Below, one piece after another: positions 3,001 through 39,691 of a DNA stretch of 64,000 nt; position 1 is the stretch's first letter, and the number at the start of each line of letters is the position of its first letter. The DNA is from a virus (Duplodnaviria > Heunggongvirae > Uroviricota > Caudoviricetes), in the IMG/VR virus record IMGVR_UViG_3300028833_000054, positions 246,482 through 310,481 of that record. One strand, 5' to 3'. The notes under the pieces are model-generated. The model was not told the origin of the DNA and made no database searches. It was given only the letters and a program-made list of their open reading frames with translations. The position numbers and the translations under genes were made by a program.

Positions 3001-6000
3001 TCCGTTTGGAGTCTCAAGAGTGAATGACCAAGCTTTCTTAGGAGAAAGACCATAACCAGGACCGACTGTTGTATTACCCTTTACGAATTCAATTGTGTAG
3101 AATCCCTTGGCAGGAATTACTGCACCTGCAGGGAATGCCCAGTCAGGACGAGCTGAAGGTACTTCATCAACACCCTTAAGAACATATCCTTCAAGATTAA
3201 TGTCAGAAGAGGTAGGATTGTAGAACTCCATCTTCTTACCGTTAGGATCAACCTCGTTTATGCATACTGTTGATGCAGGAGCTCCAAGAACCATATCTCC
3301 TCCTCTCTTAGGAGCAGCGAATGTTGTTGGCTTAGGTGCTGAATTAACAGCAGCAACTTCATACTTATAAACACCCTTATAACCTGCTGCATTTGCAGTT
3401 GCTTCATCAGCAAAAGCACTTGCAGGTCTTGTATTAGGTGATTCATAACCCCAAGATGCGAACATCATATTCTTAGCGCGTTGGTCAACGCAAGCAAAGA
3501 ATTCAGTAAGAACATAGTAAGCAGTAGTTACATTAACATTCATGTGATTTGGAAGTTCGTTAGCAAACTTAGCGAGACGGAAATCAGCATTATCATATTT
3601 GTAAACTGTGCTATTATAAGTAACAGGAGAAGAAAGAAGATAGTCATTATCAAGATTTGCTACCAAAGTCCACTCGTTATTAGCATATTTGTAAACGTTC
3701 TTGTAATTGACATCATCTGCATTATTGATATAATACCACTTAGTATTATCAATTGCTGATGCATCTTCTTCATATTTTCCATCAACATACCAGAGATGAG
3801 TTTCTGAATTATATCTTGCAATATAACCGAAATACAAGTAAGAATCATCAGGACCGAGTTCTTGTGTTGCATCATCAACGATATGAAGAGGCTCAAGTAT
3901 ATATCCTGAATTATAATCAAATACTGTATGGTCATCAGCATTCATCTCATCAAGAGTACCATTGTAGGTTAAGAATGATTCTGTTGCAGTATCACCTGCT
4001 CTCAATTCTTCAAGAGTACCATTCCATGCATAAGGAATCTTAAGAGTCTTTGCTGCATCATGGAAACCTTCACGGTTGGTGCTTGATACCCAAGTCATGA
4101 ACTTTCTCCAGTGAACAGGGTCTTTACCTGCTGCAAGGTCTGCAGCGTAGTTGTCATTGTCAGGGTGACGACCCTCAAATGAACCAAGCCACTCCATTCC
4201 GTATTCCTCAGATGTCTCTCTGAAGCTTTCATCTGTTACATTATTGAACTTAGAAATTTCTGCTGAGTTGTTAGTGAACTCCCAGCACTCAACAGGTGAT
4301 TCATATGCCATTCTGTCATCTTTTGATGCTGCATCATAGTAATCTTCATCAAAGCTGGTGAATGGCTGACCAGTCATAGGGTTAGTATAATCTACCTTCT
4401 CTACAATATCTCCAGTAAATCCGAATACATCTTCAGCTCCCTTATCAATATTGAAGTTGTACTTACCGATGAACTCGTAGTCATCATTATAAGTTCTTCT
4501 CCAGAACATTGCAATAGGATAACCATCAACAGTAGTTCTAGTAGAAACCTTGTTGATATTATTTTCATTCTTATTATACTCTGCTTTCTGTGGAGGAGTA
4601 AGGTAAGAGTAACCCATATTCTTAAGAATGTAATCAGCATACTTAGCAAGACCAGTATTGTGGGTACTTGATGCCTCTGCGAAGTCAGCCTTCAAACAGA
4701 ACTCTGTTGCAGGAACTGATGTGATAGAAGCAGTATTCTGATACTCATGGTCTGAAAGACCGAAGTCCTTAAGAATATACTTATTCTTATATTTGTCTGC
4801 ATAAGTAGCAGCATCATTCATACGATTAAGCTTACCGTCAGGAGTACCACCTGTTCCTGATTGTCCTTGTGAAGTACCAAGAACATCCCAGAACAAAAGT
4901 GTAGGCTTCTTAGAAGCAAGAACCTTATTGTAGTCTGCAATACTATCAACACTTCCACCATCCATCAATTTCTTCTGAGGCTTAATCTTAAGTTTGTAGT
5001 TCTTTCTTGGATAGTATTGAGATGATGTACCTTGAACTGTCATTTGTGCATTGTATGCAACAAATGAGTGGCAGAAGTCATAATATTCTCTTGCCTCTTC
5101 ATCAAGCATATCGCAGTTGAATACTACGGTATATCCTCTCTTATCCTTTTTATTCATAGGAAGAATATGCTCTGCATTTGCATAACCGTAAGTCAAATCT
5201 GTTACATCAGATTCACAGGTTACGAACAAGCAAGGCATCTTCTGCAAAAGTTTTGAGTAATCAATATCAATTCCAGAATCCTTAAGAATGTTATTTCTAA
5301 GATACAATCTCATTCTTTCTGCAGGATCTTGAGTATCTGCAACATAGTTATTTACAAGAGCCTTGTCATAAAGAGCTTTCTTATATGAACGGATACTGTA
5401 AATATCAATTGTAGCATTGTCTGAGCCGATAACAATCTGTGAAGGTCTCTGCTGTACGAATGAGTTAGCAGCAGAGTATTGATTAACTGCAGTACAAATA
5501 CCATTTACATAAACCTTGACAAATCTCCACCAACCTTCTGCAACAGAATCCTTAGTTACATAAGTTCCTCTACCTGCATCCCAGATTGATACCTCGTGTG
5601 AAGCATTACCTGCATCATCAGAGTTAAGAGGAGTGATAACGAATGCGATTCTAATTCTTTCATTCTCCTTGAAAGGAACCTTGATTCTTGAGTCTGCAGA
5701 ATCTGAAAGTGAGAATTCAGATGATGTGAAATATGCATTGTTAGCATTAATTACAATACCTGAATTATCTGCATCTGAGAAACAAGAAATAACAGTTGTA
5801 GTAGAATCTGAAAGGTTGCTAGTTGAGAAGTCAAATTCAATAACCTGACCAGTTGAACGGTAGTCACTGTCAAATGGAGTATAAGGAATTGTACATCTTG
5901 CTCCACCTGCAACTCTAAGAGCAGTCGTATTGTTATTCTGATACCAACCTGAGTTGCTGTTCCATGCAAAACCTTCAAGTGTTGCACTCAAATTACCAAT

Positions 6001-23819: not shown

Positions 23820-24026
23820 ATTGGTAAATATACAACTGCTCCAAGTTTTATGCTGTCTTTGACCAGGCTCCCTACCTGCCCTCACTGTACCCTACATACC
23901 AATAAATTGTAAACTGTATCTGCATACACTGTCCAGTATTATCTTCTGTTGGCCTCGGATTGCTGATTGGCTTTTCAACATAAACCGCTTGGTAGTATTA
24001 TCAGGAGGCTTACTGTTGTATATTTG

Positions 24027-24097
24027 TGCTCGACACAAGAATCGAACTCGTCTCCTCTGGGTTAGGGCCAGGTGCACATCCACTGTACCAGTCGAGC
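24027..24097 (-). tRNA. tRNA-Sup(CTA), amber-suppressor-type
   Basis: Acceptor GCTCGAC/GTCGAGC, D stem GTAC/GTGC, loop CC CTA AC, T arm ACGAG TTCGATT CTTGT. Confidence 0.75.
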
Positions 24098-27003: not shown

Positions 27004-28653
27004 TTAGATGACGAGCTTGCGGATCTCATCTATGTGAGCAGAAGGATTGAACTCCTTAGTTGCAATATCCTGGAACATTGAAAGTCCATATCCGAAGTAG
27101 TAGTTGACCTTACCACCTGCAAGAGGTGTAGTACCGTATGCTGCAAGGTCAACAGCGTAGACGTAAGGGTCAGTAACGTCGTGGATGTAGCTCTTGTAAG
27201 CAGTGCTGGTCCAGTCTCCTGACCAGTAACCACGGCTGTTGCACTCGTTGTCTGAAAGGATTATGATACGGTCATAAACCCTCTTCAACCTACGAATTAA
27301 ATCAAATGCAGAAGCAATTGAAGTTCCACCCATGTTTGCGTTACCGATTTGACGGCCAAGGGTGAATACATCCGTGTTAGGATTGTATGAGTACATCTGA
27401 GCACTTGAACCGAAGCGGACAACGTCGGCGTTAGTTGCTTTCGCAATTGTTGCTGCGATAAGTCCTGCCTTCTCTGCTGCAGTGGTCTGAACGCGGTTGC
27501 TTGAACCACTGTAATAGCAGTAAGTGTTCATAGAGCCTGAGCAGTCAACCATAACGCAGGTCTTTCCAGGAAGAGCTTCTGCTAGGTTAGGAACTGCATA
27601 CTCATAACCCTTAAGGAGAGCCTGCATGACTCTACGTCCTTCAGCGGTTGAGCTGAATTCTTGCTTGACAGTCTCGTATGCGTAGTCAATCTGGTAAGGC
27701 ATAACCTTTCCCTGACGGATTTTTTCACCGTCTGAAACAAGCACACAAAGAGCGTCAATGACTTCCTTACGAGGACTCTTAAGCATGTTACGGACGTTAC
27801 GAATTGCAGCAAGAATACCAAGCTTACCATCAAGAAGAAGTCCCTGCCAGTTGTCATTCTTTGCTTCCGCAAGAACAACAGCAGCCTTCTCCTTAGAAAG
27901 CTTACCAGCCTTTACAGCTGCTGCAACCTCTTGACCAGCCTCTGAGTTTGCAGCCTCCCAAGTGTCAGCTGTAACAGTGAAACCCTGCATGAGTGCGTCA
28001 AGAGTCTTCATCGTCTTACCGTTGATAGTGACTTCAGCAGTAGAGAGCTTGCTCTTAGGGTGTGTTAAGTTTGCAATGTCAATTGCAGTGTCCTTGTACT
28101 TAGCAAGCTGGTAAGTATCAAGGTTCTCAAGAACTGAGGCGAAACCCTTCTTCATTGAGTTGCTCAATGCAGACTTGTTAAGCGCACAGTAAACGTCCTT
28201 GATTTCACTCATGTCATCAGGACGGTAAATAACTCCACCCTTCTGGGCCTTACGGTCCCAGAGTCCGTAAAAACGCTTAGCGTATTCGTTACCTGCAATG
28301 AAAGGTGCAGCAAGTGCAGCTGCAAGATGGCTGACAGCCCTCATACCTTCACCCATGCAACGAGACCAAACAATAATCTGAGCAAGAAAATAAGGGTCCT
28401 TGAGACCAACCTTCTCAATCAAATCACGGAGTTCCTTCATAGTTTGATTCTCAGAACGGTAGAACTGAGGCTCAAGCTTTAAGGTGTTCAACATAGATAC
28501 AAGACGAAGTTCATCACCAAGTGAATATGCCTTGTAACCTTGACGGTTTACAGTATTCTCAGCTGGAATACTTGCGATGTTTGCAACCGTCTCCTTTGAG
28601 GCCATAGCTCCTAGAGCTGACCTAAGCTGAGAGTTACGATCTTTCATCTTCAT
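27004..28653 (-). CDS. rsr: Ro60/TROVE-domain RNA-binding protein with C-terminal vWA
   Basis: N-terminal NRQGYKAYSL..ELRLVSMLNT..FY; R.EGMR; vWA VDCSGSM, GGT, ILSDNE. Confidence 0.9.
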   Translation of the reverse strand: MKMKDRNSQLRSALGAMASKETVANIASIPAENTVNRQGYKAYSLGDELRLVSMLNTLKLEPQFYRSENQTMKELRDLIEKVGLKDPYFLAQIIVWSRCMGEGMRAVSHLAAALAAPFIAGNEYAKRFYGLWDRKAQKGGVIYRPDDMSEIKDVYCALNKSALSNSMKKGFASVLENLDTYQLAKYKDTAIDIANLTHPKSKLSTAEVTINGKTMKTLDALMQGFTVTADTWEAANSEAGQEVAAAVKAGKLSKEKAAVVLAEAKNDNWQGLLLDGKLGILAAIRNVRNMLKSPRKEVIDALCVLVSDGEKIRQGKVMPYQIDYAYETVKQEFSSTAEGRRVMQALLKGYEYAVPNLAEALPGKTCVMVDCSGSMNTYCYYSGSSNRVQTTAAEKAGLIAATIAKATNADVVRFGSSAQMYSYNPNTDVFTLGRQIGNANMGGTSIASAFDLIRRLKRVYDRIIILSDNECNSRGYWSGDWTSTAYKSYIHDVTDPYVYAVDLAAYGTTPLAGGKVNYYFGYGLSMFQDIATKEFNPSAHIDEIRKLVI

Positions 28654-32436: not shown

Positions 32437-32785
32437 ATTGTCAGGCATAGGTACCAGGATTCTGTTTACGGACCCCACCAACACCCTTCATGGTTCGGCT
32501 GCTACGGACGGCAATACCCAGCTAACAGGCCGGTGTTTCCTGTAAGAAGCTGACAGTTATGGTCGATCATCATAATACCAGCAACTAGTCTAAACTGTAA
32601 ACGGTAGTTGAAAGTATCCCTCGTTTGTAGTAACTTCTTCTGCGTGTGGTGATGGGCTACTCTTTAATCCATGCATTCGGAGCAGGCAGAAGGCTCTCTG
32701 GACTAATAATAAACGTCTTTGAGCAGATTGACGGATTGGCTTGTTTTAGTATCTGAACATTCACAGGGTAACCATGCCTCTCAAT
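32437..32785 (-). ncRNA. Candidate ~350-nt structured RNA
   Basis: Ends pair: ATTG..AGGCATGG.TACC with GGTA.CTATGCCT..CAAT. Confidence 0.4.
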
Positions 32786-38263: not shown

Positions 38264-38296
38264 AGCTTGTTCCACTATCGTCTTCTTAGCTATTTG

Positions 38297-38381
38297 CACA
38301 CGGAGTAGGATTCGAACCCACGCGAGATTTTCATCTGTCGGTTTTGGAGACCGATGCCATCAACCACTAGGCTATCCGTGT
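38297..38381 (-). tRNA. tRNA-Trp(CCA) with a long variable arm
   Basis: TCGGT CT CCA AA ACCGA followed by CAGATGAAAATCTCG; A1-U72, G73. Confidence 0.8.
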
Positions 38382-38385
38382 ATTT

Positions 38386-38541
38386 AATCAGACTATAGCC
38401 AGGATTCTGTCATTTAAGATTGTCATTTAACTTTTCGTCTTACCCTGGTAGCAATAATTTGGGTAACCACCTATACTTAGACTTTCACATCCAAATCTGT
38501 GTCCTGAACTTCCTCTGTTTCCAGCGACAATCCATCTGATT
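38386..38541 (-). ncRNA. rnpB: Minimal RNase P RNA-like (catalytic domain only)
   Basis: P1 AATCAGA/TCTGATT; P2 GATTGTC/GACAATC; P3 CTG GAAA CAG; P4 GAGGAAGTTCAGGA with ACAGAATCCTGGCT; L15-like GGGTAAGAC. Confidence 0.75.
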
Positions 38542-38549
38542 ATTTATTG

Positions 38550-38622
38550 AGCCCCTTAGAGGAATCGAACCCCCATCTTCTCATTACGAAAGAGATATAC
38601 TCAACCGTTATACTAAAGAGGC
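38550..38622 (-). tRNA. tRNA-Thr(CGT)
   Basis: Loop TT CGT AA. Confidence 0.85.
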
Positions 38623-39050: not shown

Positions 39051-39055
39051 ATTCT

Positions 39056-39127
39056 TCCGGCACTCTGCCTTTTGAGCTACCCGACCGCTTAATGGCCGGG
39101 GTAAGATTCGAACTTACAACCACCGGA
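39056..39127 (-). ncRNA. Circularly permuted tRNA opened at the anticodon loop
   Basis: TCCGG - V - GTAAG TTCGAAT CTTAC - CCCGGCC ATTAAGC GGTCGGG - TA GCTC AAAAGGCA GAGT G - CCGGA. Confidence 0.75.
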
Positions 39128-39133
39128 GTTCCG

Positions 39134-39550: not shown

Positions 39551-39691
39551 TGGGGAGAGTTAGATTTGAACTAACGACACGGTCCTTTCAATGGAACTTC
39601 GAAGTAACTTTGACAATGACTATCTTTTCAGAAGAAAACTTGCAAAGCAAATTTTCGTTTTTACCTGCTCTACCAACTGAGCTATCTCCCC
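39551..39691 (-). ncRNA. tRNA(Phe-type body)-Y-module chimera (insertion in the anticodon arm)
   Basis: GGGGAGA/TCTCCCC, normal D and T arms; insert TTTTCT TCT GAAA AGA TAGTCA..TTACTTCG. Confidence 0.8.

Follow-up and report, generated by a model that had tools for sequence, protein, structure and literature searches.

A predicted phage-encoded bacterial type A RNase P RNA cut down to the catalytic domain

RNase P, the ribozyme that trims new tRNAs, is counted among the housekeeping ribozymes of cells. Natural RNase P RNAs of very small size are known from yeast mitochondria, where the RPM1 RNAs hold little beyond P1 and P4. The RPM1 RNAs are organellar, depend on a protein of their own (Rpm2), and have neither P15/L15 nor P6. 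In phage T4, small RNAs of unknown function (stable RNAs species 1 and 2; rnaC, rnaD) lie beside the tRNA genes.

The closest natural analogue of the RNA described here is archaeal type T. Type T RNAs have a full C domain, are predicted to contain P6, lack P18 and have lost most of the S domain (PMC3579882; PMC5839562; PMC13462272). They retain a remnant S-domain stem with a putative T-loop and have a 3-bp P2 and several archaeal proteins (PMC3579882; PMC13462272), together with a shortened P15 and an archaeal core sequence (PMC3579882). An engineered counterpart is the E. coli C-domain ribozyme (Eco CP RPR; Mao et al. 2018), the activity of which depends on a P6-like pairing (PMC5839562). P18 is largely dispensable in this ribozyme, its loss having no effect without C5 and causing a modest drop with C5 (PMC5839562). 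Deletion of the S domain lowers the efficiency of the E. coli RPR about 500-fold in vitro (PMC5839562), so a natural RNA free of the S domain might be a poor enzyme. No account of an RNase P RNA encoded by a phage was found in the huge-phage paper or in the full-text literature searched, the coverage of which was incomplete.

Genomic setting and architecture of the element

The window is the whole stretch of 64 kb that was analysed (positions 246482-310481 in an IMG/VR virus record of 363,991 bp with an estimated completeness of 94%). It carries a minus-strand array with 45 tRNA genes according to ARAGORN and 45 tRNA matches according to Rfam. An RNase P RNA-like molecule of 156 nt had been placed in this array, at 38386-38541, in a preliminary description. 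The place was right and the extent slightly too short, as P1 closes one base pair further out. For model searches, a covariance model (R1) was built from 12 homologs of 195-254 nt, with the short forms left out. The R1 match to the element spans 38384-38543, and the gene was found as a single copy in the 364-kb genome by R1 search. The element, its parts and its neighbours are as follows.

38549-38622, minus strand: upstream tRNA-Thr(CGU), found by ARAGORN and Rfam
38543-38549, minus strand: 7-nt spacer CAAUAAA between the tRNA-Thr discriminator base and P1
38385-38542, minus strand: mini RNase P RNA gene, 158 nt, P1 5' strand to P1 3' strand
38534-38542 (UAAUCAGAU) with 38385-38393 (GUCUGAUUA), minus strand: P1, 9 bp
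38526-38533 (GGAUUGUC) with 38417-38424 (GACAAUCU), minus strand: P2, 8 bp
38515-38524, minus strand: P3, minimal hairpin CUG-GAAA-CAG, 3 bp
38502-38515, minus strand: CR-I, consisting of J3/4 GAGGA and the P4 5' strand AGU[U]CAGGA
38510-38502 (AGU[U]CAGGA) with 38404-38397 (UCCUGGCU), minus strand: P4, 3 bp, bulged U38507, then 5 bp
38486-38501, minus strand: P5 hairpin, CACAG/AUGUG with loop AUUUGG, the S-domain insertion point in type A
38491-38496 (AUUUGG) with 38457-38462 (CCAAAU), minus strand: P6 pseudoknot, P5 loop to P16 loop, 6 bp
38483-38485, minus strand: J5/15, AAA after G38486, counterpart of GCAA in the type A consensus
38437-38482, minus strand: P15-P16 module, with P15 GUCU/AGAC, J15/16 AAGUAUA, P16 and the L15 3' side
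38447-38471, minus strand: P16 hairpin, GGUGGU/GCUACC, with a 13-nt loop holding the P6 3' strand
38441-38446, minus strand: L15, 3' side of the P15/P16 internal loop, AGGGUA, aligned with CGGGUa of RF00010
38425-38436, minus strand: J15/2 (CR-IV-like), GAAAAGUUAAAU, 12 unpaired nt between P15 and P2
38397-38416, minus strand: CR-V, consisting of J2/4 UAAAUGACAGAA and the P4 3' strand
38296-38381, minus strand: downstream tRNA-Trp(CCA), starting 3 nt (AAU) past P1

The P1-P2-P3 stack encloses the core. With type A (RF00010; E. coli M1 RNA, rnpB) the RNA has in common P1, P2, P3, a P4 with bulged U, P5, the P6 pseudoknot and the P15/P16 loop with GGU, as well as the single-stranded motifs J3/4 GAGGAA, J18/2-like AG.U.AAUG and J2/4 ACAGAA. 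It differs from type A by lacking the S domain (P7-P14, CR-II and the CR-III T-loops) and P18, by a P3 of just 3 bp, by its size (158 nt against a 367-position model) and by its location inside a tRNA array. CR-I of the element aligns without gaps, via family members, to the RF00010 consensus GAGGAAAGUCCGGg; CR-V matches ACAGAACCCGGCUUA of RF00010, with the changes compensated in P4. The type A signatures CR-I (GAGGAAAGUCC) and CR-V (ACAGAA..CGGCUUA), with a bulged-U P4, were found in the element as GAGGAAGUUCAGGA and ACAGAAUCCUGGCUA. In P4, the departures from the bacterial consensus are compensated, AGU[U]CAGGA/UCCUGGCU standing against AAG[U]CCGGg/cCCGGCUU; at the two positions beside the bulged U, AGU replaces the near-universal AAG with pairing kept, a change with a possible effect on metal binding. 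In the copy of phage DLP_6 (see below), P4 shows further compensation and reads CGCGA/UCGCG. J15/2 aligns with AGAUgAAUG of R1 and RF00010.

Several readings of the preliminary description hold in this model: the compensated P4 with its bulged U, the L15-like GGGTAA (the 3' strand of the internal loop between P15 and P16), and the absence of P18, as the 12 nt of J15/2 are all that parts P15 from P2. Its CACA/UGUG hairpin, taken there as a remnant of the S domain, is actually P5 capped by the P6 strand AUUUGG. The S domain is absent, not reduced: nothing but the 6-nt P6 strand caps P5, and 8 nt of the element stand at the site where R1 has 46 positions (the S-domain remnant of the homologs). 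No separate S-domain match was found within 24 kb around the element.

Compared with type T, the phage RNA lacks any S-domain stem, has a P2 of 8 bp and a bacterial-type core, and does not qualify as type T. Unlike the yeast RPM1 RNAs, it keeps the complete bacterial C domain. With Eco CP RPR it has in common that it consists of the C domain only, and the elements important there are those kept here. Eco CP RPR was made in the laboratory by deletion from a full-size RNA, whereas the phage RNA comes from a conserved gene that occurs in nature. The T4 RNAs rnaC and rnaD were considered as relatives; R1 with filters off scored them at 1.6 bits or less, which is noise, and they were rejected as unrelated.

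Most tRNAs of the array, both neighbours of the element included, do not encode CCA. The tRNA-Trp(CCA) at 38296-38381 (minus strand) carries a 13-nt insertion, agaugaaaaucuc, in its variable region. A match to the tRNA model at 39551-39691 (minus strand; 45.6 bits) extends over 141 nt, which implies a tRNA-like gene with a large insertion in it. A partial match to YrlA (Y RNA-like, RF02553; 37 bits, E 7e-5, below threshold) was found at 39054-39128 (minus strand), and a 549-aa ORF with a Ro60-type vWA domain at 27004-28653; the two would fit a phage pair of the Ro60/Y-RNA-like kind. A tRNA with CUA anticodon at 24026-24097 (minus strand), labelled 'Pyl' by ARAGORN, is a possible amber suppressor and hints at possible stop-codon recoding in part of the phage. 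The best matches of an RmlA-like phage gene were Bacteroidales MAGs (59-63% identity), a weak hint of a Bacteroidales link of the host. For unbiased sampling, relatives of the neighbouring 193-aa and 817-aa ORFs were sought, and none were found.

Homology to RNase P RNA and covariation of the fold

With the Rfam models, tRNAs only were found above the gathering threshold in the 64-kb window. No Rfam RNase P family, type T included, matched a 451-nt region around the element at E<=10, and a search of the whole phage genome with RF00010 gave no match. R1 recovered the element in the window end to end (83.8 bits, E = 7.8e-24), with the next match at about 10 bits. The check with RNase P covariance models proposed in the preliminary description was accordingly negative for Rfam and positive for the family model. 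The second R1 match (32439-32523, minus strand, 10.2 bits) has only the 12-mer ACAGAAUCCUGG of the ribozyme CR-V in common and was rejected as probably a chance match.

For the detection of relatives, IMG/VR was scanned for exact CR-I-like and CR-V-like 16-mers, and contigs were filtered for both motifs in the correct order. The 16-mer matches were mostly due to chance. About 25 contigs passed the filter, with motifs 120-300 nt apart, and the locus was usually inside a tRNA array. Longer forms of the family matched RNaseP_bact_a over the whole model: L037 with 42.7 bits (E 2e-13; 40.8 bits also with RNaseP_arch), L068 with 66.2 bits (E 5e-18) and L064 with 46.4 bits (E 3e-11). These scores are significant yet stay under the gathering score of 100 bits, as the longer forms lack most of the S domain. 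The score for type A of at least 100 bits (Rfam gathering) was not reached by the window element either, which gave no match at E<=10.

BLAST of the window element against 50,697 phage records returned chance matches only, and none were obtained with L026 as query. A 245-nt copy in the cultured Stenotrophomonas phage DLP_6 (KU682439.2:105774-106018, 109.7 bits), inside a tRNA cluster, was found by BLAST and not by motif; it is unannotated in GenBank. The short-form pattern was absent from 185,579 species genomes (cellular). Members with variously sized, reduced S domains occur in many phages with ordinary tRNA arrays (DLP_6, L026, L031, L064, L068), and the family architecture recurs in phages of very different GC content (35-61%).

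There is hardly any doubt that the element is a homolog of bacterial RNase P RNA. Its sequence and predicted fold identify it as a phage-encoded bacterial type A RNase P RNA cut down to the catalytic (C) domain. The central claim of the preliminary description, an RNase P RNA-like molecule with P1-P4 and L15 and without S domain and P18, is supported by this homology and by the covariation set out below.

Additional elements were observed in related contigs. In L064, the complete copy has directly upstream of it a partial RNase P-like element (3414-3539, minus strand), which spans model positions 13-164 with the canonical GAGGAAAGUCGGGUC and without CR-V. In two longer members, an ORF of 65-67 aa is inserted at the site of the S-domain remnant (L058:3171-3368, L068:4271-4474). 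Both ORFs have in common CxH...CxxC, TFTY, CLDC and SVSTT, and the conserved family motif GUAGGAG serves there also as a Shine-Dalgarno-like sequence (GGAGGA) that precedes the ATG by 5 nt. They could encode a small zinc-ribbon protein within the ribozyme gene. GOLLD RNAs (176-192 bits; L064:7430-7900, L031:2524-2979) and tmRNAs (L068:1678-1957, L026:6292-6675, L031:5408-5700) were also found in tRNA arrays with family members. Phage tRNA arrays that hold family members collect large structured RNAs.

For covariation analysis, viral and metagenome contigs were scanned with a gapped pattern. This gave 39 short-form loci, 29 of them distinct, of which 25 were aligned (alignment A1). When the P1-P6/P15/P16 model was applied to the 25 distinct short forms, 95.7% of 1224 cells held standard pairs. 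In slid controls, with partners shifted by 1-3 columns, 30-41% were paired. Double-sided changes were present in 24 of 49 pairs, and the observed values were reached by none of 500 shuffles. RNAalifold independently recovered P1, P2, P5, P15 and P16. Cells of P1 and P2 were 93-94% paired, with double-sided changes in 7 of 9 and 5 of 8 pairs, respectively. The closing C-G pair of P3 was invariant, and a subgroup of homologs has a longer P3 in the same position. P5 covaried, with the variants CACUU/AAGUG, CACUC/GAGUG and CUCAG/CUGAG. P15 covaried from U-A to C-G, and P16 was 99% paired with three pairs changed on both sides. The P6 pseudoknot was paired in 100% of cells, and 3 of its 6 pairs were changed on both sides. 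Its variants in the short forms were AUUUGG/CCAAAU, AAUGGG/CCCAUU and ACUUGA/UCAAGU; in the longer forms GCCGA/UCGGC, GACAC/GUGUC, GAAGC/GCUUC, CUGCA/UGCAG and others were present.

Loops outside the search patterns were invariant or nearly so: J5/15 (G)AAA (the AAA in all 25 short forms), J15/16 AAGUAUAG, L15 GGGUA (GGU retained in 24 of 25) and J15/2 with its AAUGA core. CR-I and part of CR-V were required by the search patterns, so their invariance is partly ascertainment and uninformative. The inner helices of the minimum free energy structure (AUUUGGAU/GUCUAAGU and UUACCC/GGGUAA) showed no double-sided change and did no better than shuffles; they were therefore dropped in favour of P5, P6, P15 and P16. 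Together, these substitution patterns show that the fold of the mini RNase P RNA is under selection.

The element might instead be a decaying remnant of a captured rnpB, or a structured spacer aiding the processing of the adjoining tRNAs. It is very short, was missed by Rfam and has an unremarkable single-sequence folding energy (z = -1.19), which speaks for such an origin. This explanation is nevertheless disfavoured and appears very improbable: every helix, the pseudoknot included, is kept by compensatory changes in 25 distinct variants, the core loops are invariant, and the same architecture is found across the 35-61% GC range.

Expression, protein partner and substrates

The mini RNase P RNA would be transcribed as part of the minus-strand tRNA array, since the spacers of 7 nt and 3 nt leave no room for a promoter of its own. 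The RNA would be freed upstream when the 3' end of tRNA-Thr is processed, and downstream when RNase P cuts tRNA-Trp at its 5' end (+1). A search for PF00825 (RnpA) gave no match in six phage records that carry the RNA, this genome included. Host RnpA is the likely partner, because the phage encodes no RnpA, and the RNA would then assemble with it. RnpA reportedly binds the C domain and the 5' leader, a result attributed to Reiter et al. from 2010. The small holoenzyme would remove the 5' leaders from the approximately 45 pre-tRNAs of the phage.

The same setting could accommodate a decoy or regulator, that is, a catalytically dead or weak RNA that binds host RnpA or pre-tRNA 3' ends and so diverts or throttles the maturation of host tRNAs in the course of infection. 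Every region of the C domain known to contact RnpA is kept in a phage without its own RnpA, and engineered RNAs lose much activity without the S domain. A pure protein sponge would, however, have no need of the conserved L15 GGU, the J5/15 adenosines, the bulged U of P4 or the P6 that positions P15-17, and the gene sits in tRNA arrays, which need RNase P. We regard a decoy as quite unlikely. The mini RNA probably acts as a processing enzyme together with host RnpA.

In such an enzyme, no S-domain contact to the T/D-loop elbow would be made. As the S domain is absent, so is the contact to the T-stem-loop, and recognition would have to use the acceptor stem or acceptor end, the tRNA 3' end (via the L15 GGU) and the leader (via the protein). 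The S domain reads the T-stem-loop in known enzymes (PMC5839562), and its loss might let the phage RNase P cut non-canonical substrates of the array that the host enzyme rejects or mis-cleaves, such as tRNA chimeras with inserted modules, permuted or Y-RNA-like tRNAs, and tRNAs with odd elbows. Odd RNAs are indeed present in the array: the tRNA-Trp with its 13-nt insertion, the 141-nt tRNA-like gene (39551-39691) and the YrlA-like match (39054-39128). Such a specialisation, raised as altered specificity in the preliminary description, is nonetheless unlikely in our estimate, as the family is widespread where arrays look ordinary, with many standard tRNAs in each of DLP_6, L026, L031, L064 and L068. 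This wide distribution argues that serving atypical tRNA-like RNAs is not the general purpose of the family, and general processing of the phage pre-tRNAs with host RnpA is preferred here.

Implications for large phages

The genes of this family are missed by the Rfam models, and the DLP_6 copy had escaped GenBank annotation, which points to an annotation gap. A laboratory result has apparently been repeated by nature: the bacterial C domain with P6, without S domain and P18, seems sufficient. As a natural RNA of 158 nt, the element offers a compact model for the minimal catalytic core, for recognition between RnpA and RNA, and for substrate selection without elbow contact.

A conserved phage-borne RNase P lineage would join the translation-related genes carried by large phages. 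We tentatively put forward, as a possibility short of an even chance, that large phages have their own lineage of RNase P ribozymes, that no other natural RNase P RNA acting in trans with a complete bacterial catalytic core is as small as the 158-nt form, and that with host RnpA it forms a holoenzyme ignoring the tRNA elbow. If such an elbow-blind holoenzyme exists, the phage would be free to evolve and process non-canonical tRNA-like RNAs, or tRNA maturation would be sustained when host RNase P is limiting or targeted.
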